Notes: a model not told the origin generated them from the sequence alone. DNA of 64,000 nucleotides from Candidatus Falkowbacteria bacterium (GCA_963774955.1 CAVZGV010000004.1:296716-360715), one strand, 5' to 3'; counted from the first letter of the stretch, positions 4,083 to 62,999 are shown. Made by a program: numbers and translations.

Positions 4083-4255
4083 TCTAATAATTTAAAACTA
4101 ATAACTCAAAAGTCAAAAGTTCGTAATCATTTTAAATTTAAAAGCTCTAAGCTCAAAGCTCCGAGCAAAGAGCTTAATCTTATCTTAGCAGAATTTCATT
4201 ATTTAGTCAATGTTAAGAACTCGCCATTTATTGGCGATTTTGTTATAATTATCGC

Positions 4256-5420: not shown

Positions 5421-5984
5421 ATGCTGGTTATTAGCATAGTCACTTTAATTAAATTATTTTTACTTCTTTTGGCCTTTCTGCTTTTAGGAACTGTCGGCTT
5501 TATTATGGGCAGTTTCCGAAACAAAGTGCCTTTTGTGCCCACGCCCAGGAGAATTATCAGAATTATGGTGGCCATGGCTGGTATTTTGCCCAATGAGAGA
5601 ATTTGCGATTTGGGGTCAGGGACCGGCAGGATACTTTTTTCAGTGGTTAGAAAAAACAAGCAAAATTTAGTGGTAGGCTTTGAAAAATCTTTTACTTTAA
5701 GGCTGGTCAGTAAGTTTTGGCTGGCTATACGGCCATGGCTGAAAAAAAGAGTCCGGATAGTTAATGCGAATTTTTTCAATCTTGACCTTTTTGAGTACGA
5801 CGTTATTTTTTGTTTTTTAACACCTGACGCCATGAGAATCTTAGCCCCGAAATTCCAGACTCTCAAGCCGGGCAGCCGTTTAATTTCCTATATGTTTCCT
5901 CTGGAAGAAACGCAGAATTTTCAGGAAGTCATAGAACATGTGGGCGATAAAGATAGCATTTACTATTATAAGAAGGTCTCATAA
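5421..5984 (+). CDS. SAM-dependent methyltransferase with N-terminal TM helix
   Basis: Motif I ICDLGSGTGRILF. Abuts the preceding stop (TAAATG). Confidence 0.65.
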   Translation: MLVISIVTLIKLFLLLLAFLLLGTVGFIMGSFRNKVPFVPTPRRIIRIMVAMAGILPNERICDLGSGTGRILFSVVRKNKQNLVVGFEKSFTLRLVSKFWLAIRPWLKKRVRIVNANFFNLDLFEYDVIFCFLTPDAMRILAPKFQTLKPGSRLISYMFPLEETQNFQEVIEHVGDKDSIYYYKKVS

Positions 5985-6075
5985 TAAATAAAGAATGAAG
6001 TCGGCTATATACTAATAACTAATAACTTATAACTAAGAACTAAAAACTTAGGAAGATTAATTTAATAGAATTAAT

Positions 6076-11365: not shown

Positions 11366-11470
11366 ATTTACCCTGAATGACAACCTGACGGTTTGTCTTT
11401 TTTTGTTTATTGACATATTTAATTTTTATGCTAAGCTGGAGTCAAACATTGAACAAAGGAGGAACGAATC

Positions 11471-11779
11471 ATGGCCCACAATGTCAGTAAGACAATTCTT
11501 CATGAAGCCAAAAGCCCTCAGGAACTGCTGGAGTTCCTGGCCGAGCACGCTGCCCGGTATCAGGCGGAAACGGAAATCGAGCATCCCGCCTATCAACTGC
11601 AATTGCTGATTGAGTTTCATGAAAAAACCGGCTACTGGATCCTTTATTCCCAGCGGGTCTTGAAGCCAGACTTCGGCGGCCAGGTCTATCAGGAGCAGAC
11701 AAGGGAACACCTGTTCGCCGTCCACGAAGCTTCAGTCAAACGCGGCCAGGATATGGCCAAAGTTCCGGACACTCTCTAA
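11471..11779 (+). CDS. hypothetical protein (102 aa), GC-rich coding sequence
   Basis: SD CAAAGGAGGA; strong terminator 11798-11830 (gcccccg / cgggggc + T-run). Codon usage is GC-biased relative to the neighbours. Confidence 0.5.
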   Translation: MAHNVSKTILHEAKSPQELLEFLAEHAARYQAETEIEHPAYQLQLLIEFHEKTGYWILYSQRVLKPDFGGQVYQEQTREHLFAVHEASVKRGQDMAKVPDTL

Positions 11780-11831
11780 CCAGAATCACAAAAATCACAG
11801 CCCCCGGGTTTTTTCTCGGGGGCTTTTTTAT

Positions 11832-12602
11832 TTATTTTTTATACTCTTTCGACCCCAGCCACAAGCCTTCAAACATGGCTTTAAAGAAGTCATTGATTTC
11901 CTTGGACTGAATCAGGATGGCTGAGAGTTCATCCAGGGAGGAGATTATGGCGACTTTATCGTCAAAGATGATCATGACTGATTGGAAATGGCCTTGCATA
12001 ATTTCAGGCAAATAGCGGGGATTGCGGTCTTTGATTTCTTCGGGTGTCAGGCTGCGGCGGCCGGGGTTGTTTTCCCAAAGCGAGCGGGCCGTGATCTGGC
12101 GGGTTTGACGGGTTTGGATGAAATAGTCCGCGTATTTTTTATCAAATTCCGAAAAGAAATTTTTATTGGGCGCGATAATATCCCAGTGCCGGGATTTGCA
12201 ATATAAGGCCTGTTCCACCACCAGCTTAATGCCGCTGATGCCTTCATAATGTAAAACATTAGCCTGGCCTAATTGCCGGGCATTTTTGGGTTGCAGCAAG
12301 GGCAGGACCTGGTCCAGTTCTTTTTGCTGGTCCTGCAAGACCTGAATCTGGCTGGTAATCAGGCGTTTGATGTCTTTGGGCTCGGTCATGATAAAAGCCA
12401 GACGGTTGGCCGTGCCTTTATTGGCGACCAGGCCTTTGTGCATTAGAGTGTTTAAAGCGTGGTAAATAGTAGTGCGCTTAATACCCGTGATTTTTTCCAG
12501 TTCCTTGACCCCGATACTGGGAAAATCCAAGCCGGCCAAGTAAATCGTGGTTTCAGTGGCGGTTAAGCCAAGGCTTTTTAAGATAGTCGTTATTTGATCC
12601 AT
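11832..12602 (-). CDS. TrmB-family HTH transcriptional regulator (second paralog)
   Basis: N-terminal LGLTATETTIYLAGLDFPSIGVKELEKITGIKRTTIYHALNTLMHKGLV. Confidence 0.7.
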   Translation of the reverse strand: MDQITTILKSLGLTATETTIYLAGLDFPSIGVKELEKITGIKRTTIYHALNTLMHKGLVANKGTANRLAFIMTEPKDIKRLITSQIQVLQDQQKELDQVLPLLQPKNARQLGQANVLHYEGISGIKLVVEQALYCKSRHWDIIAPNKNFFSEFDKKYADYFIQTRQTRQITARSLWENNPGRRSLTPEEIKDRNPRYLPEIMQGHFQSVMIIFDDKVAIISSLDELSAILIQSKEINDFFKAMFEGLWLGSKEYKK

Positions 12603-12861
12603 ATACTTAAATTTAGCTCATATATTTATTTTTGTCAATGATATGTTGAAAATTAAAATTGCTAATTTTAGCATAAAATAATCTTTGTCATTCAATGGTT
12701 ATAAACACGTATTGTAAGCAGGTCAGGGATTTTATATATTTTAAGCAGTAAAACTGGAACCTTGACAATTCAACCCAATACGCCTATGCTTAGAAGAATA
12801 TTAAATTGTTTGAAGGCCCGCCTTCGCTCCTACGGAGCTTCGGCGGGCAAGGAGGAAATCA

Positions 12862-13739
12862 TGAAGAAAATCGACTTTCACGCCCATACTTCGGATCATA
12901 AGCTTTGGGGTCTGCACACGCAGACTGCCACGATTTCTGATTTGGTGAAACTGGCCGCCAAATACGATTTGCATAAAATCGTTTTGCTGGCCACATATTT
13001 TCCCTTCAAAGGCAGCGGTCTAAAAAATCAAGAATTGTTGGAACGTATTACTGGTAATCCGCTTTTCTGCATGTTCGGCAGTTTGGATGTTCAAAATAAT
13101 TTTGAACAGGGTTTGCAGGAATTGCGGGAACTGGCAGCGCAAGGGAAAATCTGCGGGCTTAAATTGTATCCTGGCTATCAGGTTTTTTCTCCATCTGACC
13201 CGAAAGTTTTTCCGGTCTATGAACTGGCCAGGGAGTTTGATTTGCCGGTCATGTTTCATGGCGGCGAACTGCATCATTGTTGCCAAAAGGAAGATCGGCA
13301 AAAAGGTCTTTTCCGTTGCGGCCAGGCTTGCAAGATTGATCAGTTGGGACATTTGTCTCAGCCGCAATCTTTTGAGGGCGCGATTAAAAATTTTCCGTCA
13401 GTCAATTTCATCATCAGCCATCTGGCTAATCCCTATTTTGATGACCTAAGGCGGTTGATGAACCTTTACCCTAATATCTTCACGGACATATCCGGCCAGT
13501 TTTTGTCAGGCACTGACGAAGCCAGTTCGGCTTATCAGCAAATGGTGGTCGGTGAAATTAATAAATTTCTGCAAGTGTCCAATGGCCCTGACAGGTTATT
13601 GTTCGGCACTGATTGGCCCATCCAATCATATGACGACTCAATCAGACTGATTGAGTCGCTTAACCTCAGTGCAGCGGACCAAAATAAAATTTATTTTGCC
13701 AATGCTGCCAAACTTCTTAAACAAGCCCTCCTTCGCTAA
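12862..13739 (+). CDS. amidohydrolase-2 / TIM-barrel metal-dependent hydrolase family protein
   Basis: MKKIDFHAHT start preceded by GGAGG. The six-frame ORF starts at 12762, but that upstream part translates a conserved hairpin repeat. Confidence 0.65.
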
Positions 13740-13768
13740 AGCTACGGAGGGCAAAGGGAGGATTAGTC

Positions 13769-14432
13769 ATGAACAAAAAAGTATTGGTCACAGCAGGCTC
13801 GACCAGGGTTAGGATTGATCAGGTTCGGGTAATTTCCAATATCTTTAAAGGCACAACCGGTACGCAAATCGCCGCTTACTTTCAGAGATCAGGGCGATAG
13901 CGTAACTTTAATCACTTCCAACCCCAAACTGGCGGCGACTTTAAAGGTCTCTAAAGTTGATGATTATCGCACCTTTGATGAACTGGCTGACCTGATGGAA
14001 TCTTATATCACTGAACGTGATTTTGATGTCATCATTCACTCAGCTGCAGTCAGTGATTACAAAGTTACCGGCCTCTTTACCCGTGAATTTCCTGAAGGGG
14101 AACTTATCAGCGTGGATAATTCCGCCAAAGTTTCTTCTGCTCATGAGGAGTTATTTCTCAAGCTGTCACCGACTTCCAAACTTATTGATCAGATCCGTCA
14201 GCCCTGGAATTTTCAGGGCGTGCTGGTCAAATTCAAACTGCAGGTCGGCATGACCGACTGGAATCTGATTGATCTGGCCAGAGATAGCCTGCACTATTCC
14301 CATGCCGATCTTATCGTGGCCAATTGCCTGGAATGGGCTCGGGAATATGCTTATATCCTGGATAAAAAAAACAACGTCAAACAAGTAGACCGCGCTGATT
14401 TGGCGGCTGAGCTGTACAGGAGGACCAGATGA
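13769..14432 (+). pseudogene. coaB: phosphopantothenate-cysteine ligase CoaB (DFP domain), interrupted by a +1 frameshift near 13895
   Basis: Frame 1 reads MNKKVLVTAGSTRVRIDQVRVISNIFKGTTGTQIAAYFQRSGR* and stops at 13898-13900. Frame 2 continues DSVTLITSNPKLAAT...DVIIHSAAVSDYKV. CoaB homology is continuous across the two frames. Confidence 0.6.
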
Positions 14433-16183
14433 AAATTTTGCTGGGTGTAACATCTAGCGTGGCTGCCAAGCTGACTCCCAAACTGGTTAAGCTTTTGCTT
14501 AAACAGGGCCATATGGTTCAGGTGGTGGCCACGGAAAAATCTTTGTATTTCTGGCAACAGGAACAGCTGGAAATTCCGGTGGTGACTGAAGCTGATGAAT
14601 GGCCGGGTACTCAGTATGATCAGGACGCTCCCATTGCTCACATTGCTTTGCGGGAATGGGCTGATTTGATGCTGATTGCTCCGCTGACTGCCAATACTCT
14701 GGCCAAAATGGCCAATGGTCTGTGTGACAATTTGCTGTCCAGTATTGTCCGCTCCTGGGATCCACAAAAACCAGTCGTGATCGCGCCGGCCATGAACACT
14801 AAAATGTGGGAGCATCCGCTGACAGCTGAACAGCTGAAAAAGCTGGGTGAGTGGTATCCGCTTTCCGTTGTCCAGCCGATTGCTAAAAAATTAGCTTGCG
14901 GTGATTACGGACTTGGCGCCATGGCTGATTTGGACACGATCGTTCAGACAGTACAGGACGTCATCAATTCACTAAAGCAAAAAAAACAAGAACCCAAGAG
15001 CCCCAAAAAAATCACGGTCATCGGCGGTCCCATCAGCCAGGCCATTGATCCGGTGCTGAACCTTGTGCCGAGTGGCAGAGGTGAGCTGGCACATAAGATT
15101 GCCCTGGAATTTGAGCGACAATTTACTGATGTTGATCGCCTGGGTAATTTTGAGCAGAGCAAAAAGTGCGACTACGTTGATCTGGAGCAGGAAGTCATTA
15201 ATCTCAAGAGCGACGTGGTAATTTTCCTGCCCCATATTGCCAATGTCCTGGTGGACAAGCAGGCGACCAAGATTCGGGTGGCTGAAGGCGAGGAATCTGG
15301 TATCAAAGTTATCAGCGCGCCCAAGCTGGTCAATCTGGTCAAACAGTTTCATCCTGAAGTTCTGCTGGTTCCGTTCAAACTTGCAGAACAGGATATGGGC
15401 AAGGCGAAAATCGTTAAATGGATGTTGGAAGCCCATGCGGCTCTGGCGGTTTATTCCCGGCTGGGCAATTCCAAGTCATTCTGGATCATTGATGCTCTGG
15501 GAAATGAAACGCCCGTGGCCAAAGCTGATTTACCGGTTGAACTGGTTGCTCAGGTCCAAAAATATCTGCAGGCCATCAGACGCCGCAGTGTAAAAAAAGG
15601 CGAAGCCGTGCCACCGGTACCGCATCTTGAGGACTGGGTGAATTTTTCCCGGCAGATGCAGCCGGCTTTTAGCCAGATCATGGAACGAAATGTGGCTACT
15701 GGTCGCTGGCCAGGAAATTTTTCTTTCCGTTGCACGCACGGCTTTATGTCTGAACGTTGCGAGCAGGGCTTTGTCATCACCAAACGCAACGTGGCCAAAA
15801 GCGGTTTACAGCCTGATGACTTTGTCTTGGTCAATTTGGAACTGGAAGACGAGCAATTGTCTTATCAGGCTAAAGGCGAAGCCAAGCCCAGCATTGACGC
15901 GCCGATTCACCGTTTGATTTACGAAAAATTAAGTTGGGTCAAAAGCATTGTCCATGGCCATTTGCACATTGTTCTACCTCCGGAAGCTGATGTCATGCTC
16001 GAACAATGGCCTTGCGGTGCGGAAAACGAAGCCATCGAGCTTCTGGAAATCGCGCCACAGGAAAAAAGTCCTTTGTGGGTAGTTAATGTTACCGGCCACG
16101 GTTTCATTGCCCTCATCGGTGATGAAGATCCGTCTGCTTCTTTGGAGGAGCTAAGCCGGCTTGATTACAAAGTTACCTATTAA
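14429..16183 (+). CDS. fusion protein: phosphopantothenoylcysteine decarboxylase flavoprotein (CoaC) + CoaB-like domain + class II aldolase/adducin-like domain
   Basis: N-terminal flavoprotein (LLGVTSSVAAKL...PAMNTKMWEHP). Middle VIGGPISQAIDPVLNLVPSGRGELAHKIA matches the CoaB signature. C-terminal ITKRNVAKSGLQPDDFVLVNLE...KPSIDAPIHRLIY is aldolase class II-like. Confidence 0.65.
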   Translation: MKILLGVTSSVAAKLTPKLVKLLLKQGHMVQVVATEKSLYFWQQEQLEIPVVTEADEWPGTQYDQDAPIAHIALREWADLMLIAPLTANTLAKMANGLCDNLLSSIVRSWDPQKPVVIAPAMNTKMWEHPLTAEQLKKLGEWYPLSVVQPIAKKLACGDYGLGAMADLDTIVQTVQDVINSLKQKKQEPKSPKKITVIGGPISQAIDPVLNLVPSGRGELAHKIALEFERQFTDVDRLGNFEQSKKCDYVDLEQEVINLKSDVVIFLPHIANVLVDKQATKIRVAEGEESGIKVISAPKLVNLVKQFHPEVLLVPFKLAEQDMGKAKIVKWMLEAHAALAVYSRLGNSKSFWIIDALGNETPVAKADLPVELVAQVQKYLQAIRRRSVKKGEAVPPVPHLEDWVNFSRQMQPAFSQIMERNVATGRWPGNFSFRCTHGFMSERCEQGFVITKRNVAKSGLQPDDFVLVNLELEDEQLSYQAKGEAKPSIDAPIHRLIYEKLSWVKSIVHGHLHIVLPPEADVMLEQWPCGAENEAIELLEIAPQEKSPLWVVNVTGHGFIALIGDEDPSASLEELSRLDYKVTY

Positions 16184-16188
16184 CAACA

Positions 16189-16218
16189 AAGCCGTTCCGC
16201 GTTGCGGAACGGCTTTTT
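16189..16218 (+). terminator. rho-independent terminator
   Basis: gccgttccgc gtt gcggaacggc followed by ttttt. Confidence 0.6.
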
Positions 16219-16339
16219 AAAATTGCCGAAAACGGCAACGTTTACATAAAGTAGAGACGAGGTTAACCGCGTCTCTACCGTCCATTTACATAAAATACAG
16301 CCGTTTTCGTGGTTCCGGTCGGTTTTTTTACGCTAACTA

Positions 16340-16369
16340 TTGACAAAAAGTTTTAAATGTGCTATTATA
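16340..16369 (+). promoter_or_regulatory. consensus sigma70 promoter (TTGACA-18-TATTAT), promoter module copy 1
   Basis: ctaactattgacaaaaagt...gctattat; a near-identical copy is at 16791-16819. Confidence 0.55.
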
Positions 16370-16427
16370 TAGATACAAAAATAAGCGTCTGAACTTTTAA
16401 CTGCAACCTTTTCAAAGGAGGATACAT

Positions 16428-16697
16428 ATGTATACTCAGAGCAACTCGCAGACTTACGAACCCCCGACCATGCCCGGCAACTGGGAGCCGGAGGACCTCG
16501 CGCTGATGGATGCCGAGGAAGCTTCCTTTCCCTGCGATGAAGACGAAGCAGAATATGAAGAGGAAGAGCGTCAGGCCTTGGAGCGGCAGCGCCTGGAGGC
16601 CATCTACCAGGAGGATATCCTGGAGGCCTTCGCAGACCGCGATTGGCAGCATCAGTTGAGTGTGGCGTTTCTCGCCTCCCTCGACCCAGCGTACTAA
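16428..16697 (+). CDS. highly acidic small hypothetical protein (89 aa), GC-rich
   Basis: SD CAAAGGAGGA; D/E-rich; terminator 16711-16745. Confidence 0.5.
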   Translation: MYTQSNSQTYEPPTMPGNWEPEDLALMDAEEASFPCDEDEAEYEEEERQALERQRLEAIYQEDILEAFADRDWQHQLSVAFLASLDPAY

Positions 16698-16790
16698 AAA
16701 AATACCCTCACACCCCGGGAGACTTTTATCCCGGGTTTTTTATTTGTAAGCCATTTTCAGCGTTTATTTGAGGTTATTTCCCCCTAACTA

Positions 16791-16819
16791 TTGACAAAAA
16801 GTGAAATATATGCTATTAT
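16791..16819 (+). promoter_or_regulatory. consensus sigma70 promoter, promoter module copy 2
   Basis: ctaactattgacaaaaagt-N9-tgctattat, identical core to copy 1. Confidence 0.55.
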
Positions 16820-16876
16820 GTAATGATGTGTCTTTTTTAGGATTGATTGTTTTTACCACTATAACCAAGGAGGAAT

Positions 16877-17617
16877 GTGATGTCGAGTACTGAGGATAAT
16901 GGTGTTAAAGTGGAAACTACGGACAATGTTCATCATCATTTCGAAGATCCGCTGGGAGTTTTCGACGGCTATGGCGAATACGACGATCGTTATTTTGATG
17001 AAGAAGAAGACTGGTGCGATGAGGAGGATCGTCCACGGGAAGAAGATTCTATGGGGATTTTCGCCGGCTACGGCGAATTCGACGATCATTACTTTGCCGA
17101 GCCGCCCATGTGCAAATGGGAAGACGGCGACGATTTCCGTGACGAATGGCTGTACGGCGACGACTTTCCCACCCCGGCCAGATTTGCGGGCCTTGAAGTT
17201 CCTCCTCCCAAAACACGGTGTACCATCAACTTTGCGGAGGAGATAAAGACATCGCGAAATCGCCTTTGGCGAAAGCGTTGCCTCGGCAAGAATCCGAGGT
17301 ACAAATGCAAGCGCCAGGGCAAGCGGTTTTCCACCATCCTGCATGCTCATGTTGAGCTGACTCGGGAGGAGTGGTTCCTCTATGACCAGATGAACGCGCA
17401 GGAGCAGTCCTTCAGGGATCGAATGGAGGACGAGAATGAGAGCTTCGACGAGGACATGAGGAGTCTCAACCAAGATCTGGCCACCATTCAGCAGATGATA
17501 GCTGAAATGTGGGCAGACCGTATTCCCCGCTGGTTGATCGAGCTCCAGACCGAAATCGAGATCAAGATGTACGAGCGTCAACAGGAGTTCAATGAGCGGT
17601 ACCAAATGGCCGCCTAA
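16877..17617 (+). CDS. acidic hypothetical protein (246 aa) with an internal duplicated GxFxGYGE(Y/F)DDxYF motif, basic Cys-containing middle and coiled-coil C-terminus
   Basis: SD CCAAGGAGGA; GC-rich codon usage; terminator 17632-17665 (cccccggg / ccggggg). Confidence 0.55.
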   Translation: MMSSTEDNGVKVETTDNVHHHFEDPLGVFDGYGEYDDRYFDEEEDWCDEEDRPREEDSMGIFAGYGEFDDHYFAEPPMCKWEDGDDFRDEWLYGDDFPTPARFAGLEVPPPKTRCTINFAEEIKTSRNRLWRKRCLGKNPRYKCKRQGKRFSTILHAHVELTREEWFLYDQMNAQEQSFRDRMEDENESFDEDMRSLNQDLATIQQMIAEMWADRIPRWLIELQTEIEIKMYERQQEFNERYQMAA

Positions 17618-18316
17618 AAGCAACAACCTAACACCCCCGGGACTTTTACCGGGGGATTTTTTTATACAAAAAAACACCCCGTCAAACGAAGTGTCTTCAT
17701 CTATGCCGCTACGCGGCACTTTCCAAAATCTGCAGACAAGAATATCTGAAGAAGGAATAATCTAGCCGGAGCCGGATTGAAACCTTTTTCGGACACCCAT
17801 GCTTATCGTGCCTGCAGATTTTGAAAAACAATTTGATTAAATTGCTTCCCCAAAGTCGCCCAAAATGATGGTCATGCTGTTTTCAGGGGGAATAGAAACA
17901 GCTCTAACCGCCAATTGGACGATACTTAAACTTATCATAATACGGAAAACTTGTCAAGAGAATGACAAGTTTTCTATGTTTTTGGCTTATTTTAGAGGAA
18001 TTTTGTTTATTATTCTATTATCTGGAATTATGTTGTTTTTAAGCTAAATCTTGAATAAATCTGCCAGTCGGCTTCTTACTTTTTATAACTAAAAAGTAAG
18101 CAAAAAGTTTTGGGGGTGCTCAATGCGCTAGTGCATATGGTTAGTACGTGGTTTTGATAATGACGCTTAGTTCGCACCCCCAAACCCCCGGGGAGGGGTG
18201 AAAAACGTTTTGAGTAATAAGTTTAAGATTACTTTATGATTTTGTCTACCAGCCCATATTTAACTGCCTCTTTCCACCTTCGCTCCTGCTGGAGCTTCGG
18301 TGGATTTCGGTTTACA

Positions 18317-18922: not shown

Positions 18923-19055
18923 AGAATTTTGAAGGGTAAGAAGGGCGAAGAAGGGTAAGAGGAGAAAGAAGGGTCTACACTTCTTACTCTTCTTACTCTT
19001 TTTACTCTTCTTTCTCCTTTTTAGTTATTAATTTTAAAGTTATAGTTTTGAGTTT

Positions 19056-20066
19056 TTAGATTTGAGCTTTAAGTTTATCAATTATAGCATTTATAATGTA
19101 ATTTTTCCAATCGGTATTAGCGCCCATAATTTTTCGTTCAAGCTTGAAGCCCGCCGCTTTTTTATGGCCACCGCCGCCAAACAGGCCGGCAATTTGAGAA
19201 ACATCAAGATGATCTTTGGTTGTCCGCAAACTGCCTTTAATCGTCTGCTGATCACGTTCGGTCAAAACAGCAATAAAATCAATATCTTCCAGGGTCGATA
19301 GGAAATTAGATAAGCCGTCGCTGGCCTCATCTGCTGTCATTTGATATTCAATTAAATCAGCTTGAGCAATGACTGTATAGACGAAGTTGAATTCCTGATT
19401 GAATTCCAGCTGAGAAAAAACCTTGCCCCAAAGCTTCAGACTGAGCAAGTTTTTATTTTGACTGATGCTGCTGATGATTTGGTTGGATTTGGCGCCATAA
19501 TTAAGAAGTTTCGAGGCAATTTCCAGACTGTCTTGGGTGGTAGCGCCATTAGTAAAATTCATGGTATCAGTAATAATTCCGGTCATCAGACTGGTGGCCA
19601 TAAATTTATCAATTTCCATTTTGTTAAGTGTGAAAAGTTTGTAAAAAATTTCACAGGTGGAGGAAGCACTGGGAATAACCAGGTTTAGATGACCATAGTT
19701 ATCGTTGGTCTGATGATGGTCAATATTGATTATCTTGAGCCGGTCTTTTTGTTTGAGTAACTCCTGGCTAATGCCTGTTCTGGCAATAGTGCCACAATCA
19801 ATGATTATAACCAAGTCATGGTCAGCCAAATTAATCTGCTGATAATCGGTTATCAGGTTTTCAATTTTGGCCAGATAGTTAAAGTATTCCGGCGGTTTGT
19901 CTACACAGAAATGTTTATGAGGTTTATTGTTTTTATTAAAATAATGAGCCAGAGCTAAAGATGCACCGAGGGTGTCACCATCGGGCTTTTCATGCGAAAT
20001 CAGCAGGGGATGATTGGCATTCTGGATAGCATTCAGTATTTTCGGAGCTGTTTGTCGGTAAATCAT
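19056..20066 (-). CDS. nrnA: DHH/DHHA1 phosphoesterase (NrnA-like oligoribonuclease / pAp phosphatase)
   Basis: DHH motifs HEKPDGDTLGAS, IIIDCG, NIDHHQTN; DHHA1 GGGHKKAAG. Confidence 0.8.
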   Translation of the reverse strand: MIYRQTAPKILNAIQNANHPLLISHEKPDGDTLGASLALAHYFNKNNKPHKHFCVDKPPEYFNYLAKIENLITDYQQINLADHDLVIIIDCGTIARTGISQELLKQKDRLKIINIDHHQTNDNYGHLNLVIPSASSTCEIFYKLFTLNKMEIDKFMATSLMTGIITDTMNFTNGATTQDSLEIASKLLNYGAKSNQIISSISQNKNLLSLKLWGKVFSQLEFNQEFNFVYTVIAQADLIEYQMTADEASDGLSNFLSTLEDIDFIAVLTERDQQTIKGSLRTTKDHLDVSQIAGLFGGGGHKKAAGFKLERKIMGANTDWKNYIINAIIDKLKAQI

Positions 20067-20455: not shown

Positions 20456-20992
20456 AAGTATTTTTGGTTAGTGATTTATTGGTGAATGGGTTAGGATGCT
20501 GGTTTGGTGAATAGTATAGAGTGTAAAGTGTATGAACCTTAACACCTGGCACATAACACCATCCTAACTTCTTTACCTATTCACATTTCACCTGTGGATG
20601 GTGAGTAGGTTGGGATTTTAGTGGAGAGTGTATTGTACTAGGCGATTTTACCTTAACACTAAACATGACAGACTATATTTGCCTCCTTGCTTATACACTT
20701 TTGATTGCTATGAATTTGGCTAATGTTAGGGTCTTTTAATAACTAACGATTTAACCTTACATATATAGACTATCTGAAATCAGGCTTCTTGGCAACCTGT
20801 GTGGGTAATATGTGAATAAACTTAGCCATTTTCTCTTGACAACCCCCAAAGGTTTTGGTAATATTAATATCACCAGAGAGTTCCCGCTATAAATCTAAAA
20901 AAATAAGTTGCAAAATAGTGGGCTTTATTTTTACTTCTTAATTTTATAATTTTTAATAAAACTCGTCTAATAAGTGAGACGAGGTATTTTTT

Positions 20993-31700: not shown

Positions 31701-34700
31701 CGACTGTTACTAATGCGTTAGACCTGGATACTGATTATGAATATGATTATTCTTCAGGCAAGCCGACCCAGGTGACTGATCCTAATGGGCGGGTGTTTCA
31801 GACAGTTTATGATGCCCTGGACAGGGTAAAACAGGAAAAACAGCCGGATTTAACCACGCCGAGTACTTTGGTGGTTAAAACTGAATATACATACACTGAT
31901 AATACCGTACCGAGCAAAGTTCAGCAGACAAATAATCTGGATTCTTCAACGAGTTTTGATATTTATACTTATCTTGACGGTTTTGGACGAAAAATTCAGG
32001 AAAGAAAAGAGGCCGAGGCTTCAAATACATTTAGTGTCAAAGATTTTGCTTACAATGACCTTGGCCTGGTGGACAGGGAATCTTTGCCGTACTTTTCGAC
32101 CGGCACATCCAGAACAACCGCCACCACTGATAATTCGCTTTATACCAGTTACACTTATGATCCTTTGCAAAGAGTCGCCACCTCAACTAATGCAGTTGGC
32201 ACCACCACGAATACTTATGACGACTGGAAACTGACCATTACTGACGCGGAAAGCAATGTTAAGGATTTGTACAAAGATGCTTATGATAATTTAGTCCAGG
32301 TTGATGAACATAATGACTCAAGTACCTATACCACGACTTACGGGTATAATGGTCTGGGAAATTTATTAAATATTACTGATTCTCAGGATAATGTCAGGAA
32401 TTTTACTTATGACGGACTTGGCCGCAGATTAACAGCCGAGGATTTGCATGATCCTGAAGACGAATATTTTGGCGAGTGGACGTATGGTTATGATGATTCA
32501 GGTAATTTAACTTCCAGAACTGACCCCAATTCCCAGACAGTAAACTGGACTTATGATGATTTGAACCGCGTTTTGACTGAGGATTACACGGGTCAAAGCG
32601 GAACCGAAGTGGCTTATGTTTATGACACTGGAACGGACGGAATTGGCAGGCTTTATACGGCCACAACACCTGACGTGGTTACGACTCATACTTACAATCC
32701 GCTGGGCGGAGTGAAAACTGAAAATAAATACATTGATTCAACCAATTATCTGACCGAGTTTGCTTATGACCGCCAGGGAAACCAGACCTTGATTACTTAT
32801 CCGAGCGAAGATGAAGTTAAATACGAATACAACACGGCCGGGCTTTTGGAAAAGATTCAAAATAAACCAGCCGGTGAACAGTCTTTTACAGACCTGGTCA
32901 GCGATTATGATTATTCGCCTTTGGAGCAGGTAACTTATCAGGAAGACGCCAATGGCGTTAAAACCTTTAATACTTATGACGAGCAAAAATTGTACCGCCT
33001 AAAAGAGAAAATCACAGCCAGTCCGGATGAAGGTGATTATGGTGAAGGGATGTTTAATATGGCAATGGCTGTCCCGAGCGCAGGTGTCATTCAGAGCGGT
33101 AGCGAAGAATCCATTGCCCCCGCCACAACCGGAATCCTTTCAGCGCTCGGCGTTACTGCGGATTCGCCGTTGACGAGCGCAGGTGTCATTCAGAGCGATA
33201 GCGTGGAATCCATTGCCCCCGCCACAACCGGAATCCTTTCAGCGCTCGGCGTTACTGCGGATTCTCCCTTAACCCCGCTCATAAACAGTGTAACCATGGC
33301 TACGGAAAGTTTAGGTCTGGTTAAGGATCCTCAAATAGAACCGTTACCGGTTAAGCCTGGGGAAAAAGTCCAGCGGGATTTCCTCGGCCGGCCGGTTGAT
33401 TATTCCAATTATCCCAAAGATACCACGGTTTACATTAAAACAGATCCAAACGCCAAATCTCAGGAATTGCCTAAAGAAGCGATTGAAGCCTATGATAAAG
33501 CGGCTGCCAAGCCTCAACCCGAGCCTGAATTAAAGACTTTATTGCCCCAGGAGGCTGTTGATTATTACAACAGTCAGGCTCAAACATCACCAGGCGACGG
33601 CTCCATGATGCTTTTGGAAAGCGTTAATCCACCTAATCCGTCAACGAATTTACAAACTGAAAATTTATGGAAAAGCGACAATATAATCTACAATTCCGGT
33701 TTTGAAGACGGATTTGCATACTGGCAGTGGCAAAATAAGCAGGGCGATACGCATACGGAAGATTGCACAGTTTCCTACAGCGGTTCCTGTTCGGAAAAAG
33801 TTACCATTGCCACTTCAGGTAATTTTTGGGAAACCCAAGTTTACCAGGTTTTAAGGCTGGATGAGAATATTAATTACAAACTGCGTTTTAAGGCCAAAGC
33901 TTCAACAGCCATCACATTTAGCCTGGAAGCCGTGCAAAACCACACGCCATTCAATGACCTGGGCTTGTGGAAAGGGGATTTAAGCATTGGCACTGACTGG
34001 CAGGAATACGAATATACTTTTACTGCTTTGGCAAGCGATCAGGACGCCAGAGTAACCTTTTATCTGGGCGCCAATGCGGCAGATTACTGGTTTGACGATA
34101 TTGAACTCATACCCGATGCTCTCAATATGCTGAAAAATACCAGTTTTGAAAACAATCTTGATAATTGGGAATTTTATGATTACAACAGCACCAGCGAAAA
34201 TACCCGAGACTGCGCAGAAGCGTCTGACGGCGACTGCAATAACAAGGTGGAAAATATGCAGAGCGGTGAATGGTGGCAGGTTTCCCTTAACCAGCCGATT
34301 TCAGTGGTGGCTGACCAGACCTATATTCTGACGTTTTACGCTCATTCCAATTACGATACTCGAATAGCCAAGGTGGCAATCGCCAAGAATTACAGTCCCT
34401 GGACTGATTTGACCGCCATTGCCGAATTTCACACCAACTGGAACGGCGGTTTTGCCAAATACCAGATTGAGCTGACCCCGAACGCCACTGAAAGCAACGC
34501 CCGCCTGATCTTTTATCTGGGCGATGATCAGGGCTGGATTAAGCTGGACAGTCTGCGCTTATGGCCTCAGCAGGCGACTAAGGTTTCAGATTCAACCCCT
34601 GAATTCTCCGCGATTTATGATGATCCGGATTCCGGGGATTATGCAACAGATTACCAGATACAATTAATCAAATATGATGGGAACTGGTCGAACCCCATCT

Positions 34701-47667: not shown

Positions 47668-48285
47668 ATGAAATTTTATTACATTTTTGAGCAAGAAGAA
47701 GATTTGAAATATGTTCCTTTAGTGAGTAATAAATATACAGTTTACGGGTTGAAAGATTATGAACTTGAGGAAGGCAAATTTATTAAGAGATGGGATAACC
47801 GAAATGTGTTGTATTATGACAAAGAAGGTATTTGCGAGGATTTTTTATCAAACACGCTATTTGCTCCGGTTATTTCCCAAAGAATTAAAGATATTCTTGA
47901 AAAAGAGCTAGGGATAAAAGGTATTCAATTTTTTCCTATATCTATTAAGCACACCAAGAGTGATAAGGTTGTGTATGGTTATTATGTTATGAACGTTACA
48001 AATTTAGTTAGAGATGCCCTTGATAGGGAAAAATCTATATTTAGTGTTACGGAGTTACCAAAACTGAATATCAGATCAGAAACTGTGATGTTTTATACGT
48101 TAGATGTAGATAGGTTAAGGGGACAAGACGTTTTTCGTGTGGGAGATGGTAGATTATTTGTATCTGAAAGAGTAAAGGATGCATTTGATAAATCTGGTGT
48201 GACGGGCATAGCTTATGGAGGGACTTGGCTATCCGGTGATAAAAATAGACCTTGGGAGAAAAAGAAGTTAAAATATAACTTATGA
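47668..48285 (+). CDS. hypothetical protein (possible orphan immunity gene)
   Basis: 205 aa; no recognisable domain. Confidence 0.35.
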   Translation: MKFYYIFEQEEDLKYVPLVSNKYTVYGLKDYELEEGKFIKRWDNRNVLYYDKEGICEDFLSNTLFAPVISQRIKDILEKELGIKGIQFFPISIKHTKSDKVVYGYYVMNVTNLVRDALDREKSIFSVTELPKLNIRSETVMFYTLDVDRLRGQDVFRVGDGRLFVSERVKDAFDKSGVTGIAYGGTWLSGDKNRPWEKKKLKYNL

Positions 48286-49145: not shown

Positions 49146-49544
49146 ATGCATGATTATCAAAGCTTATCTCATTCAAAATGGGACTGCAAATATCATTTGG
49201 TTTTTATTCCCCAGGGTCGGCGAAAAATACTTTTCGGCAAAATAAGAAAGTACTTGGGTAATATTTTCCACGAACTGGCAAAGTATAAAAGTTGCACAAT
49301 TTTAGAAGGACATTTTATGTTGGATCATGTTCATATGTGCATTCAGATACCGCCCAAATTTTCCGTGGCTTCAATCGTGGGCTATCTCAAGGGTAAAAGC
49401 GCCATCATGATCGCCAGGCAGTTTGGCGGCAAAGAAAGAAATTTTAACGGCGAACATTTTTGGGCGCGCGGTTATGCTGTTTCAACCGTGGGATTTGAAG
49501 TTAATCGGATTAGGCAATATATTAGGGAGCAGGATTTGCATTAA
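49146..49544 (+). CDS. tnpA: IS200/IS605-family TnpA (Y1 transposase)
   Basis: YHLVFIPQGRRKIL, HVHMCIQIPPK (HuH) and GYAVSTVG (catalytic Y); 132 aa. Confidence 0.8.
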   Translation: MHDYQSLSHSKWDCKYHLVFIPQGRRKILFGKIRKYLGNIFHELAKYKSCTILEGHFMLDHVHMCIQIPPKFSVASIVGYLKGKSAIMIARQFGGKERNFNGEHFWARGYAVSTVGFEVNRIRQYIREQDLH

Positions 49545-49628
49545 CTAATTATAAATGATACTCATCAGGCATATAAAAGAAAAAGCGTTTAGATATAAAG
49601 GTGAAAAATTACTTTTTAATATAGATAT

Positions 49629-49666
49629 AAAAAACACCTCTCGGAAACGGGGGGCGTTTTTTTTTA
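49629..49666 (+). terminator. rho-independent terminator (copy 2 of the duplicated rpoC-terminator sequence)
   Basis: aaaaaacacctctcggaaacggggggcgttttttttt; 34/35 identical to 28326-28361. Confidence 0.65.
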
Positions 49667-49898
49667 AGTCTAAAGTATAAAGTCTAAGATCTAAAGTAGG
49701 TATAGTTGAATTAGTTATTTCTAAAATTAGCCTTTAGCCTTGTTTGGTTTATTTTGGTCAAATCAGGCTGACAAATACAGGGATACATTCTTGGTATTTA
49801 TCTAATATTAGCTAAAATGTAATCTGGGGGTATTGACAAGTCTCTTTAGATATGATATAGTGGCAAATCACGCTGAAAAAAGCTATTAGGCGTCCTCC

Positions 49899-49928
49899 TT
49901 GACAAATTGTCAAAAGTGTGCTATACTA
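49899..49928 (+). promoter_or_regulatory. consensus sigma70 promoter (TTGACA-18-TATACT) with TTGACAATTGTCAA palindrome; a second one at 49833-49861 (TTGACA-17-TATAGT)
   Basis: Direct sequence reading; both point into the GC-rich island. Confidence 0.5.
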
Positions 49929-50247
49929 ATAAATCATGAAATTTGAAAAATAAACACTTTAGTGACCAGCAATATGGGGGTAGTAGTGCATTAGGTCAGT
50001 AGAGTTTTCCGGCTCAGCTAGAAAACTTCTACGCCTGGTGTTTAACTGATAAGGCTCTGTCCTATATCAGTCGTCTCGCTTCGCGGGACAACACCTCCAT
50101 ATTCTTGGTCATTAAAATAGTTCGAGCTTCTAACAAAGGGCACAGAGTTCCATTTAAATTTAAAATGTACTTTTTAAACAGCGGGACTTCTTAAGCCCTT
50201 TGTCAGGATCTTGAACGCTTTGTCTAACTGCAAGAAAGGAGAAAAGA

Positions 50248-50409
50248 ATGAAACCGGAAATAAACAAGACGAATAAGAAACCCATGGCCTGGATCATGCG
50301 CGTTCGTGACGAAGTCGTGGCGCAGGTGCCCCTGGGAGTGGCTCGCCACTACCAGAAGATCGGTACGGCGATGATCATCGCCTTTTGCGTCAACGGCAAG
50401 ATCCACTAA
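50248..50409 (+). CDS. small GC-rich ORF (53 aa)
   Basis: SD AAAGGAGAAAAG. MKPEINKTNKKPMAWIMRVRDEVVAQVPLGVARHYQKIGTAMIIAFCVNGKIH. Confidence 0.3.
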   Translation: MKPEINKTNKKPMAWIMRVRDEVVAQVPLGVARHYQKIGTAMIIAFCVNGKIH

Positions 50410-50588
50410 GCCGAGATCCACAGCACGAGGGACTGTCAAAAGTCCCTACTTCACCCCAAGACGGGATAGTCTCGCGTAGATTATTTTGTCTTGAGGCGAG
50501 GTCTTAAGTGATCTTTCAAAATTGTTGGTGGAGAAATCCACGCCTATCAGGGAGCAATTCCTGATATACAAAAAAGGAGGAGACGCCC

Positions 50589-51413
50589 ATGACCGAACCC
50601 AATACCGCGACCGATACGACCGCGACCGAACCCGTGATCGAACCCACCGCCGGCGAGCAGGTTTTCACCTGCGCCTGTTGCGGGCACGAAGCCACGGCCG
50701 AAGACGGCGTCGTGACCAGCATGGTCAACGGTCGGTCCAAGATTACCGACGCGACCATGTGGGCCGCGGCCGGCCAAGTCGGATCCGAAACCACGCTCGA
50801 GGTCTTCTGCAAGAAATGCGTGACCGAAGGCGAGGAAGACGGACAGGTGTTCTTCCCGTTGAAGAACGCCCTGGCCTACGCCGACCGCGTCAAACGGCAC
50901 TTTCCCAAGCGCGAGCGACTGCTCGAGTCGGCGAGAGAGCCGGAGATGCGGGAGTCCAGGCCCGAGATGGTCTGCAAAAACTGCGGCAAGCGCCACGGCC
51001 AGATCGACAACTACCGCGGCGACGTGACCATCATCCGCAAGGCTCTGCGAATCGACTTCCAAAAGAAGCCCTTCATCGCCGAGTTCCTCTGCGGAGAGTG
51101 TCTGGCCAAGCTCGGTCTGCTGCCCAAGAAGAACGCCGATGGCAGCTTCACGCAGCCGCAGGGCCTCTTCCCCCCGTGGAAGACGCTGACGATGGCCAAG
51201 GCCGCCGAAGCTGAGCGTCTCGAGCGTATCGCTCGAAACGATGAGGCCAGGCAGCGGAAAGCCGCACAGCGCCAGCGGGAAGACGAGATCCGTCAGCAGG
51301 CGCTGGCTCCCAAGCCCAGCCCCCAGACCAGGGTCTTCTATCGACCCGCGGGCAAGCCCGGCACCGGCAGCATGAGCCATCACGCCAACCGTAAGGCCGG
51401 CAACGGCAATTAA
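50589..51413 (+). CDS. GC-rich (about 63%) Cys-rich hypothetical protein with two CxxC...CxxC zinc-ribbon-like modules and a charged coiled-coil tail
   Basis: SD AAAGGAGGAG 8 nt upstream. Modules FTCACCGHE...FCKKCV and VCKNCGKRHG...LCGECL. Confidence 0.5.
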   Translation: MTEPNTATDTTATEPVIEPTAGEQVFTCACCGHEATAEDGVVTSMVNGRSKITDATMWAAAGQVGSETTLEVFCKKCVTEGEEDGQVFFPLKNALAYADRVKRHFPKRERLLESAREPEMRESRPEMVCKNCGKRHGQIDNYRGDVTIIRKALRIDFQKKPFIAEFLCGECLAKLGLLPKKNADGSFTQPQGLFPPWKTLTMAKAAEAERLERIARNDEARQRKAAQRQREDEIRQQALAPKPSPQTRVFYRPAGKPGTGSMSHHANRKAGNGN

Positions 51414-51414
51414 C

Positions 51415-51672
51415 AAATCTTAGCTTTCGCTAAGTTGGGACAAATGGTTGTTTTGACAACCCCCCGGTCCTGTTAAACGATGGGTTTGGAAAACGTTCCT
51501 AATATCCACAGGATAACTGAGGATAGCGAGGAACAATTGGAGAGGATCCAATCTGCCAAAGCAATGATGGTCAAAGACCATATCATTCCTTAAGCAGACA
51601 TCCCCTCGGGTAGAGACCAAACGTCCTGCCCAACCCTTTGAGCCCATAAAGCAATTTGTGGTTTCAAACAGG
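51415..51672 (+). repeat. roughly 250 bp structured repeat element, copy 1 (starts right after the stop codon)
   Basis: Aligns with 51850-52094 (aaatcttag..ctaag hairpin, ggYtgttttgacaRcc hairpin, caattggagaggatccaatc, ccRtaaagYaatttgYggttt). Confidence 0.55.
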
Positions 51673-51707
51673 TTAATAAAAAACAATAATCCCCAGCCAA
51701 GGAGAAA

Positions 51708-51848
51708 ATGATGCCCAAGTTTCTGCAGGTCATGTTGGCGAATATTCCTTTCCTCGAAGGCAATCAGCCCGACGGTCGCATCCGGCACTATATCTTCCCG
51801 GACGGCCATGTCCTCGAGATCAACCTGGACGCGCTCCCGGCTCTCTGA
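51708..51848 (+). CDS. small GC-rich ORF (46 aa)
   Basis: SD CAAGGAGAAAATG. MMPKFLQVMLANIPFLEGNQPDGRIRHYIFPDGHVLEINLDALPAL. Confidence 0.3.
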   Translation: MMPKFLQVMLANIPFLEGNQPDGRIRHYIFPDGHVLEINLDALPAL

Positions 51849-51849
51849 A

Positions 51850-52094
51850 AAAATCTTAGGCACACTGCTAAGTTTGGGCAAATGGCTGTTTTGACAGCCA
51901 ACCCGGCCCAGTAAAACGAGGGGTATCAACGCGCTCCATTATTTCCGCCTAAGAATTAGGAAATGATCAGGAGCAAATTGGAGAGGATCCAATCCTGTTG
52001 CGGCAAAGCGCTAAAACAGGAAAATATCCTGGGGCGAAACCTTGTTTCGCCCGACTTTCTGAGACCGTAAAGTAATTTGCGGTTTGAGAAAGGG
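51850..52094 (+). repeat. roughly 250 bp structured repeat element, copy 2
   Basis: See copy 1. Compensatory changes in two hairpins (ggttgt/acaacc versus ggctgt/acagcc). Confidence 0.55.
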
Positions 52095-53364
52095 AAAGGT
52101 CAAAAGTTGCATACAACTTTGACACCTTATCTTAGAACGGAAAGCTTGCTAAAGTAATTAAATGCTGATTCAGCAGCCAAACAAGTTTGCGTTCTTAGAT
52201 AAGGAAGTATTTTGAAAATATTTTAAAAGGAGGAAACGTGAACCGGAAGGCTTTTTTCCGCGCCAAAAGCAGGGGACCGCCCTGAAATTAGTCCGAGGAG
52301 ACAGTATAAAACTCCCGGTCATCGCCGAAAAGGAGCCAAAATGCGCTGGAAACTCAAGTTGACCGCGGGGACCTGAGACCCCGAGTACACTCAGGTACTG
52401 TTTAAGAGCAATCTTAGGCAGTAAGGTAATGTAGTCGCGTCAGCACAGATTGGCGGGAATCGCCCACCCTGGGCAAATCCGGATTTGGACGCGGCGTTTT
52501 ACCTCGCCGGATCACCTCAAGCTCCACAGGAGGGAAAACATGACCTTCCACAGCGGTTTCACCTAGGTACACATTAACAGACAGAACCTGACTGAACACC
52601 GACATGATCTTTTTTTCGTCCGTAATACTGTTGTCTGCCGGCAAAGGTTGTCGGAGCATTAGGCGGCAGTCCCTGCCAGGTTTGACCCCCGGTCTCGGGC
52701 CTCTTCGCCCAGCAGTCAAACCGGCTCATCGTCATCATCCCCAGGAGGGTGCCCATGAGACGACTTCACGGACGGGGTTCCTGGATCCCCTGAATTCAAA
52801 TACCAGGATCAGTCTCTGCGCTCCCAAAAAGGAGCAAGAACCAGACCTCCTAAGGGTCACTGTTCCGTTCGACTTTTCATACCCGACAAAAATTTGCAGC
52901 ACTTACTCTTAAAAAGGGTTACGGCCGCGACATAAATCCATGTGGTATACCACTAGTGATCTTGTACGCGATTGCCAATGCCCAAAAAGTAATAATCAGA
53001 GAAGTATGCAAAAGCTTTTGCGGGTTCCGTTGCTTGAACACGCCGGCCTTGGCACCGATATTTCGGTAGCTACTACCGGCACGGACTCGCGCGAGTATGG
53101 TGGCTATCCGGCCCCCTCCACGCTGCGATTGCCCATCGTAGCGTTCCTCTCATCGCCGGAAGAATGGCCACGGCGGGGACCGGGGCGAGGATCCCTCGCT
53201 CCGGCCCCGCACCCCAATCGCAGGCGAAAAAAATCGGACCAAAATCGGACAAGATCGGACAATGACAAGGAGAAGGACAAATGAAACGAAGTTACCGTCG
53301 CCCCAGTTATTGCTGACCCCGACACCGGCTTCGGCCCCGGGTTGCCTCTGTACCCTAAACAGAG

Positions 53365-53397: not shown

Positions 53398-53630
53398 GGT
53401 GAAAAAGTGTTAGGGTAAGGATGCTAGTTAAGTGAATAGTGAAAAGTGTGGATGGTTAATTCTATACACTTTAAACACTCAATACCTTACTATCTACTAG
53501 ATTCATTGACGATTCACCAGGAATAAAAAAACAGCCTAATAATCAGACCGAGTGAAACGAGGGAAATAGATTCTTCGCTTCGCTCTGAATGACTACTAGG
53601 CTGTTTTATATGTGGGTAGTAGTTTATCAA

Positions 53631-60097: not shown

Positions 60098-60216
60098 TTT
60101 ATATAAGTCTAAAGGTTAAAGTATGAAGGCTAAAGTTAGGAATATTTTATATTTGAATCATACATAAAAATTCCAAAACTAAGACTTTAGACTTTTTACT
60201 TTTGACTTAAATCTTT

Positions 60217-61176: not shown

Positions 61177-61334
61177 CTTAAAACTCACAACTAAGAATTC
61201 AGAACTAAAACTAAGAACTTATAACGATGATTTAGAAATAGCAGACCTAAGTATGGGGTCGGAAAGGGCAGTTGTGTCCTTTTTTGTTTTATTATAAAAT
61301 AGGATTAAGTAATTAGTAATAGGCAGAAAGGTAT

Positions 61335-62868: not shown

Positions 62869-62999
62869 CCCCCGCCTCACGGGGGTTTTAAATTTGAAAA
62901 AAATCTAAATCTAATGTAAGATTAAGTAAATTTAGCATATAGCATATGGCGTATAGCGTATAGCCATTGGCCATAAGCAATAAGCCATAAACAAACATT

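Follow-up and report, generated by a model that had tools for sequence, protein, structure and literature searches.

Heptanucleotide tandem arrays in non-coding DNA of Patescibacteria and the probable slippage origin of an array upstream of a TrmB-family regulator gene

Introduction

Heptanucleotides are the commonest long simple sequence repeats (SSRs) with units of 5-11 nt in prokaryotes, and proposals connect them both with polymerase slippage and with the segment of DNA that a polymerase grips (Mrázek, Guo & Shah 2007, as cited in PMC4679880 and PMC4692102). That 7-nt tandem repeats are in excess in the non-coding DNA of prokaryotes has been on record since 1990 and 2007. Direct repeats of TAACTGA occur in marine Beggiatoaceae, some Cyanobacteria and Bacteroidetes. 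They are strongly oriented, and those of the largest class terminate 1 nt before start codons that lack a Shine-Dalgarno (SD) sequence; S1, Csp and CsrA have been proposed as binders, with one CspB protein per heptamer (MacGregor 2015; PMC4679880). A further group comprises the heptamers of the cyanobacterial STRR class and the GGGAATC / GGGGA(T/C)T repeats of Xanthomonas and Nostoc (Rehm 2015; PMC4692102). Our literature search retrieved no paper linking heptamer repeats to Patescibacteria, and the STR survey PMC12699852 mentions neither heptamers nor this phylum.

Here we analyzed a stretch of 64,000 nt from a Candidatus Falkowbacteria genome (hereafter the window), in which a heptanucleotide array separates a methyltransferase gene from a gene of the TrmB family of regulators:

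5421-5984, plus strand: methyltransferase gene upstream of TrmB; the gene order is kept in relatives
5985-6010, plus strand: non-repeat part of the 91-nt spacer, following the methyltransferase stop codon (sequence, alignment)
6011-6052, unstranded: heptanucleotide array of six units (sequence, TRF); an insertion relative to loci L002, L001 and L004, common to L081
6053-6075, plus strand: non-periodic, AT-rich proximal leader of the TrmB gene, which aligns with the leaders of L081 and L002
6076-6855, plus strand: TrmB-family regulator gene; M1 is invariant in 25 orthologues

The unit TAACTGA itself does not occur at 6011-6052, where the nearest reading is TAACTAA (one mismatch), and 5 of 170 arrays collected from the window and related loci come within one mismatch of it.

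Materials and methods

The sample consisted of the 64-kb window and 80 loci around TrmB orthologues from related Patescibacteria, together 1.27 Mb. All protein relatives of TrmB came from Patescibacteria (CPR) MAGs labelled Parcubacteria, Uhrbacteria, Falkowbacteria, Moranbacteria etc. Expected numbers of arrays in spacers were obtained from dinucleotide-preserving shuffles. Genes were called crudely as longest ORFs, so that analyses of the distance to start codons are weak; because the arrays are rich in stop codons, start calls of this kind shorten array-to-start distances. A gene was scored as having an SD when some 4-mer of AGGAGGT ended 4-13 nt before its start codon. For the comparison of spacer classes, the data were cleaned by keeping array-bearing loci only and by dropping short ORFs.

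Results and discussion

The array in the methyltransferase-TrmB spacer

Read from the sequence, the array consists of the six units ACTAATA, ACTAATA, ACTTATA, ACTAAGA, ACTAAAA and ACTTAGG. TRF reported it as 6011-6048 with period 7 (5.4 copies, 87% matches, score 55) and, in an alternative row, as 6006-6050 with period 21 and the higher score of 69. Both triplets (units 1-3 and units 4-6) close with an ACTT unit and resemble each other, which suggests a higher-order 21-nt duplication of three units. The first-pass annotation of this DNA had described nine units that run up to 1 nt before the ATG at 6076. A period-7 array does exist at this place, but it comprises six units. The last three of the nine (agattaa, tttaata and gaattaa at 6053-6075) are non-periodic, successive units agreeing at 1 of 7 positions each and at 3 of 21 in total, which is below random for their composition. 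Hence, the periodic part stops 23 nt upstream of the ATG and does not abut it. Since M1 is invariant in 25 orthologues, this ATG is the true TrmB start.

Judged by its alignment with relatives, the stretch 6053-6075 is the ancestral AT-rich leader, the counterpart of their short leaders that lack an array. No SD ends 4-13 nt upstream of 6076, and the lone SD-like string in the leader is AGGA at 6050-6053, 22 nt from the ATG. The sequence TAGGAAGATT (window 6047-6059; about 100-112 in L081) is common to the window and L081; situated about 22 nt ahead of the TrmB start, it is too distant for a canonical SD. The leader (121 nt) has a predicted minimum free energy of -10.1 kcal/mol (z = -0.65), no better than that of its shuffles. 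The Rfam search of the window returned two tRNAs only, so the TrmB leader shows neither a match to a known RNA family nor a fold of the kind expected of a structured RNA or riboswitch. Moreover, no promoter-like or terminator-like site was found on the plus strand of the spacer 5985-6075. The most parsimonious assumption is that TrmB is co-transcribed with the genes upstream of it.

Enrichment of period 7 in non-coding DNA

Period 7 accounted for 15 of the 61 TRF rows of the window, nearly all of them intergenic. Autocorrelation at lag 7 gave z = 6.7 relative to shuffles in the intergenic DNA of the window and no signal in its coding DNA. The spacers of the window contained 9 period-7 arrays versus 0.12 ± 0.32 in dinucleotide shuffles, and those of the window and the 80 loci combined contained 96 versus 2.7 ± 1.6, an approximately 35-fold excess. 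Periods 8 (26 versus 3.2) and 9 (15 versus 2.6) exceeded expectation 6- to 8-fold, while periods 6 (5 versus 3.0) and 5 (6 versus 1.4) were near background. Exact tandem duplications likewise peaked at k = 7 (87 versus 18 expected), and at this unit length 9 sites with at least three exact copies were found versus 0 expected. Exact two-copy duplications showed some excess from k = 4-6 already, with a discrete peak at 7.

Over the entire 1.27 Mb, arrays with at least 2.5 copies numbered 173 for period 7 and 52-60 each for periods 6, 8 and 9. Of the 173, 118 were situated in crudely defined intergenic DNA, which makes up about 14% of the sequence. At least one array was present in 46 of the 80 loci (median 4 copies, 83% match); 100 kb of E. 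coli K-12 contained one period-7 array. The signal stems from discrete arrays, which cover about 3% of the intergenic bases of the window, and a pervasive period-7 periodicity of intergenic DNA was not seen. The enrichment is real and phylum-wide across the window and the 80 related loci. The annotation had seen the 7-nt periodicity again at other starts and ends of genes, its unit sequence changing from place to place, and had named a lack of excess over shuffled controls as the outcome that would speak against its proposal. The autocorrelation, the counts and the peak at k = 7 all bear out a recurrence of period 7 in non-coding DNA, and the 170 arrays comprised 109 distinct canonical heptamers, mostly with one or two G or C each.

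That the array at 6011-6052 is a chance low-complexity pattern of AT-rich DNA or an assembly artefact is extremely improbable. The region is indeed AT-rich, and three of the nine units first described are non-periodic, but this reading is refuted by the shuffles (0.12 versus 9 arrays per window), by a homologous array in the independent assembly L081 and by the arrays seen in 46 of the 80 loci, which derive from many assemblies unrelated to each other.

The density of arrays among the Patescibacteria loci was negatively correlated with GC content (rho = -0.43, p = 4e-4), being greater at lower GC, and increased with the intergenic fraction of a locus. Arrays were entirely lacking from 23 of the 62 loci of at least 10 kb, and the trait is thus patchy within the phylum. 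This patchiness among close lineages, together with the correlation with GC, provides a tractable comparative set.

Further arrays in the window

Besides the array upstream of TrmB, the following repeats were detected in the window:

497-529, unstranded (spacer on the minus strand): heptamer array AGCCATT, 4.7 copies, in the spacer between a NUDIX gene and the next gene (TRF)
4084-4120, unstranded: heptamer array CTAATAA / CTCAAAA / GTCAAAA, abutting the 5' end of tRNA-Arg (minus strand) (TRF)
4141-4161, unstranded: heptamer array AAAGCTC, 3 copies, in the divergent spacer between tRNA-Arg and a CarS-like gene (TRF)
18931-19016, unstranded: period-9 inverted pair GAAGGGTAA / TACTCTTCT, a predicted hairpin about 10 nt upstream of clpP (minus strand) (TRF, folding)
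19044-19076, unstranded: heptamer array AGTTTTG, 4.7 copies, overlapping the stop codon of a DHH-family gene (minus strand) (TRF)
20927-20957, unstranded: weak heptamer array ATTTTTA upstream of rpoB (TRF)
49666-49741, unstranded: heptamer arrays AAGTCTA, 4.6 copies, and TTAGCCT, 2.1 copies (TRF)
53430-53448, unstranded: short heptamer array AAGTGAA, 2.7 copies (TRF)
60182-60208, unstranded: heptamer array AGACTTT, 3.9 copies, the reverse complement of the unit at 49666 (TRF)
61189-61219, unstranded: heptamer array AACTAAG, 4.6 copies, of the same unit family as at 6011 (TRF)
62933-62994, unstranded: adjacent arrays TAGCATA, 4.6 copies, and ATAAGCA, 3.1 copies, a weak inverted pair (z = -1.8) (TRF, folding)

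Their settings differ. The array at 497-529 is self-complementary (hairpin z = -2.9) and stops 10 nt short of the ATG at 487, and that at 60182-60208 ends 8 nt before the ATG (60217) of a thioredoxin-reductase-like gene, whose leader is unstructured (z = -0.63). The pair at 62933-62994 is flanked by a promoter-like site (62894-62922) on one side and by the leuS ATG at 63000 on the other, the second array ending 5 nt before this ATG. The array at 61189-61219 is located just past the stop codon of the thioredoxin-reductase-like gene, and the arrays at 49666-49741 lie downstream of a GC-rich hairpin and T-run, which themselves follow an IS200-like tnpA. The unit family ACTAAnA appears at three or four separate spacers within the 64 kb (6011, 4097, 61183-61221 and, on the minus strand, 19021).

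The array at 4084-4120 contains promoter-like hexamers on the minus strand (TTGACT-16/18-TAAATT/AATTAT), directly upstream of tRNA-Arg. A related array with GTCTAAA instead of GTCAAAA units occurs at 7695-7725 of L002, beside a putative tRNA-like sequence, and the two arrays are probably homologous. A DNA-level role would accord with these hexamers: the array upstream of TrmB could then serve as a promoter or UP-like element, play a structural part (three units make 21 bp, or two helical turns) or act as an operator for autoregulation by TrmB. The higher TRF score of period 21 than of period 7 for 6006-6050, the arrays upstream of a regulator gene in several lineages and the lack of a strand bias (see below), which fits double-stranded DNA, agree with such a role as well. 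However, the spacer 5985-6075 has no promoter-like site on the plus strand, and it is absent or tiny in relatives whose genes are evidently co-transcribed. Furthermore, units differ between arrays, which excludes a single sequence-specific binder, and a TrmB operator would be expected in the orthologous leaders but is not conserved there. We therefore rejected the operator and regard a DNA-level element as distinctly unlikely.

Position, orientation and the Shine-Dalgarno question

Across all loci, arrays were not significantly closer to start codons than to stop codons. In co-directional spacers, the histogram of their relative positions (14/10/6/14/19) gave p of about 0.1 in a chi-square test calculated by hand. 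Some arrays follow stop codons and one adjoins a tRNA gene. The general tie to start codons that had been proposed is consequently not borne out. A first pass gave 0.22 versus 0.8 arrays per kb for convergent spacers, but after cleaning these spacers held 9 arrays versus 16.6 expected (chi-square p = 0.106). A preference for 5' regions was therefore rejected, the effect of spacer class having fallen to a non-significant trend of depletion. No strand bias relative to transcription was found (A>T in 40 arrays, T>A in 34; p = 0.56). A stop trinucleotide within a 7-nt unit passes through each of the three frames in turn, so that arrays might serve as translational insulators; this idea was also rejected, as stops were equally frequent in antisense (sense 53/76, antisense 49/76).

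Within the window, an SD was present in 8 of the 45 genes that have no array, leaving 37 (about 82%) SD-less. Most native genes of the window have AT-rich leaders without an SD, whether or not an array is present, and the missing SD of TrmB is accordingly non-specific. The related loci had an SD in 149 of 957 genes lacking an array and in 2 of 39 genes with an array within 40 nt. Array density per locus and SD use were uncorrelated over 62 loci (Spearman rho = -0.015, p = 0.91). The suggestion that arrays replace the SD is thus not supported: this genome rarely uses SDs, and SD-independent initiation is the rule.

Even so, the arrays could in principle be initiation elements acting at the RNA level, in analogy to the TAACTGA repeats. 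They would offer an unstructured, G-poor 5' platform bound in a 7-nt register by S1 or a cold-shock protein and would thereby substitute for the SD. Several arrays end 5-10 nt before verified or plausible starts (60208/60217, 62994/63000, 497/487), leaders with single arrays are unstructured (z about -0.6), a corresponding picture was given by MacGregor (2015; PMC4679880), who considered S1, Csp and CsrA, and rotation of ACTAATA yields TAACTAA, one substitution from TAACTGA. Nevertheless, we consider this function unlikely: about 82% of the genes without an array also lack an SD, array density does not follow SD use, the strong orientation of the TAACTGA repeats has no equivalent here, arrays also adjoin a tRNA gene and follow stop codons, and the array at 6011-6052 ends 23 nt from the ATG and is missing from most orthologous leaders. 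HutP binds UAG-N4-UAG-N4-UAG. Periodic RNA-binding sites of the HutP or TRAP type were rejected, as most units contain no UAG and the units differ between arrays.

The contrasting statement that GC-rich foreign genes in the window carry perfect SDs holds in part. A higher-GC block at 11400-17800 (GC 0.45-0.53) has perfect AGGAGG motifs at the genes starting at 11471 and 14429. However, the GC-rich ORFs at 50-53 kb have none, and perfect SDs also precede genes of native GC content at 1410, 59367 (minus strand), 61771 and 62383. The 11400-17800 block also contains a distant TrmB-like paralogue (11832-12602, minus strand), which is 23% identical to the TrmB orthologues of L010 and L020 (BLASTP). 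The other GC-rich block (49146-53300) begins with a gene for an IS200-like Y1 transposase (49146-49544). Its ORFs reach a GC content of 0.63 versus about 0.39 for the genome, with no clear SDs and no Rfam rRNA match, and on these grounds it is probably foreign DNA.

Between 28766 and 48285, the window contains a 2562-aa ORF followed by repeated modules of ~1 kb, of which five copies with 60-99% identity lie near 34.6, 36.8, 41.1, 44.4 and 46.6 kb. Small AT-rich genes come after the modules, among them one for an Imm11 immunity protein (47668-48285). The ORF itself harbors a 99-bp tandem repeat (33075-33264; 1.9 copies, 96% match). This region has the appearance of a polymorphic-toxin locus that carries orphan toxin/immunity cassettes.

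History of the array among relatives

The gene order methyltransferase-TrmB is kept in L001-L007. The spacer, 91 nt in the window, measures about 15-45 nt in L001, L002, L004, L005 and L007 and is longer in L003 and L006; none of these seven spacers contains an array. The relatives with the spacers of about 15-45 nt have TrmB identities of 52-66%. In L081, a Logan contig and the closest relative available (TrmB 78% identical), a homologous array of five units (ACTCATA, ACTAAGA, ACTAAGA, ATTAATA and ACGTAGG) precedes the same proximal leader as in the window. Comparison of orthologous leaders, which the first-pass annotation had put forward as a check, thus recovers the array in L081 but in none of L001-L007. 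Its presence in the window and L081 and its lack in the L002-type lineage indicate that the insertion arose after the split from the latter.

The perfect adjacent pair is ACTAATA in the window and ACTAAGA in L081, which points to separate recent duplications of units in the two lineages, i.e., to duplication that would have continued independently. In more distant TrmB leaders, unrelated arrays were found: AATTCAT in L012, ACTACTT touching the ATG in L013 and inverted pairs in L010 and L020. Since they are not homologous, arrays arise repeatedly. A MITE or other mobile element was rejected as the source of the insertion, because units differ, no terminal structure is present, and the insertion consists of repeat units and unrelated filler.

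By hand count on the alignment, the array together with the proximal leader is ~80% identical between the window and L081, and the proximal leader alone about 81%, whereas third codon positions are 53.5% identical. Constraint on the proximal leader, including the shared TAGGAAGATT, may underlie this difference. For the repeat part, such identity is also expected from homogenization by slippage and from an alignment that is free of register.

Inverted pairs and predicted hairpins

About a quarter of related arrays occur as inverted pairs, which are predicted to form long hairpins with periodic mismatches, and in 20 of the 29 pairs of neighboring arrays the inverted orientation gives the closer match. 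Some spacers contained arrays in every genome examined, namely those between nusB and rnc, upstream of clpP and next to a tRNA. Hairpins with heptamer-array arms are predicted in the nusB-rnc spacers of L003 (3747-3808), L004 (2293-2364), L006 (1015-1073) and L007 (3543-3588), with z of -3.0 to -4.0 and a different unit sequence in each genome. The same spacer in L002 (3681-3947) has a heptamer array and a strong predicted fold (raw free energy, -67.4 kcal/mol). Upstream of clpP, the predicted hairpin has tandem-repeat arms of period 9 in the window (18931-19016; z = -3.4) and consists of a period-7 inverted pair in L002 (16685-16760; z = -4.8). Conservation of position without conservation of sequence, or even of period, suggests that the nusB-rnc and clpP hairpins may be structures which slippage has built and selection has kept.

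The placement of hairpins just 5' of rnc is reminiscent of the way in which E. coli RNase III regulates its own expression. A possible, though rather doubtful, extension is that inverted-pair arrays provide raw material for selected RNA structures, such as autoregulatory or processing sites of RNase III remodelled by slippage, and that single arrays like the one upstream of TrmB would be by-products or precursors. If this applies, these organisms would be a small-genome lineage in which to ask why slippage prefers 7 nt. The position-conserved hairpins with array arms upstream of rnc and clpP are candidates for regulatory RNAs in a phylum whose cis-elements have hardly been characterized by experiment.

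It is very unlikely that the array at 6011-6052 is itself an arm or precursor of such a long imperfect hairpin, acting as an RNA processing or stability site or as a terminator. The preference of adjacent pairs for inverted orientation and the z values at nusB-rnc and clpP (window and L002) agree with structured elements elsewhere, but no complementary array of the TATTAGT type lies near 6011-6052 and the TrmB leader folds no better than its shuffles.

A probable mutational process with a 7-nt preference

The array at 6011-6052 is probably a slippage-made and partly decayed heptanucleotide microsatellite, the outcome of a mutational process with a 7-nt preference and of subsequent decay. Tandem duplication within the methyltransferase-TrmB spacer, presumably by replication slippage, would have created the six ACTAAnA units, and further slippage would keep them similar. 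The short-tandem-duplication process operating in these genomes sharply prefers 7-nt units, and the array lengthens an intercistronic leader which was AT-rich, unstructured and SD-less even before the insertion. The array is probably close to neutral. A mutational process is what the shared period, the unshared sequences, the insertion, the turnover of units, the lack of orientation and the conservation in close relatives only point to. Of the two explanations that the first-pass annotation offered, a shared cis-regulatory function or an unusual mutational process, the evidence thus favors the second.

A pure repair threshold, with loops of at least 7 nt escaping repair, was rejected: it fits the TRF tail from 7 upward but not the spectrum of exact duplications, where the excess at k = 4-6 and the discrete peak at 7 make a threshold model insufficient. 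Several observations weigh against entirely neutral slippage. These are the ~80% identity of array and proximal leader to L081 relative to the 53.5% at third positions, the recurrence of ACTAAnA (11 matches of ACTAANAACTAA in the window with at most one mismatch versus 2.0 expected) and the depletion trend in convergent spacers (9 versus 16.6). Pure neutrality also does not predict the arrays found in every genome at the nusB-rnc, clpP and tRNA sites.

Comparison with known repeat systems

For the TrmB locus itself the consequences are very small: the array is a microsatellite that lengthens a spacer and should not be annotated as a substitute for a ribosome-binding site. Of broader interest is the ~35-fold enrichment of period 7 in Patescibacteria, whose genomes are very small.

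The contingency SSRs by which host-adapted pathogens achieve phase variation are likewise short tandem repeats prone to slippage. However, their units measure 1-5 nt and form long, pure tracts within reading frames or between the hexamers of a promoter, so that expression is switched by copy number, whereas the array at 6011-6052 is degenerate and intercistronic, with no promoter-like site on the plus strand.

The repeats treated by Rehm (2015; PMC4692102) share with the present arrays their intergenic heptamer organization, their variation between close relatives and occasional inverted pairs capable of forming stem-loops. Their units are G-rich and quadruplex-forming, while the units found here are A/T-rich and permit no G4. 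The cyanobacterial STRR class is defined by specific heptamers (three in Calothrix PCC 7601) of heterocystous cyanobacteria, and the present array, with the diverse A/T-rich units around it, belongs to a Parcubacteria-like MAG of the Patescibacteria.

The resemblance to the TAACTGA repeats is closer in some respects. Both are heptamer direct repeats in SD-less leaders of genomes with low SD use, and some arrays in both end a few nt before start codons. TrmB, too, is an SD-less downstream gene, although non-specifically so. The TAACTGA repeats have one dominant, oriented unit, whereas many units without orientation bias or significant start proximity occur here. Forward-oriented repeats ending a few nt from the start would be expected of that type, but the array at 6011-6052 ends 23 nt upstream of the ATG and orientation was balanced overall (40 versus 34 arrays).

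Closest are the long SSRs of Mrázek et al. (2007), as far as they are portrayed in the papers citing them. Common to both are tandem 7-nt units, a mainly intergenic location, over-representation relative to neighboring unit lengths, many different units per genome and the attribution to slippage. Those SSRs were reported from free-living bacteria with large genomes (Burkholderia, Xanthomonas, cyanobacteria and actinobacteria), while the Patescibacteria arrays reside in small AT-rich genomes and are short and degenerate, with medians of 4 copies and 83% match. Long heptanucleotide SSRs run head to tail for at least about three copies, and the array upstream of TrmB does so (5.4 copies at 87% in TRF). 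Period-7 arrays in the sample are predominantly non-coding and exceed both the composition-matched expectation and the neighboring unit lengths, and the array itself turns over between relatives, with six units in the window, five in L081 and none in more distant orthologous spacers. The array at 6011-6052 is therefore an example, from a new lineage, of an already known class of repeats.
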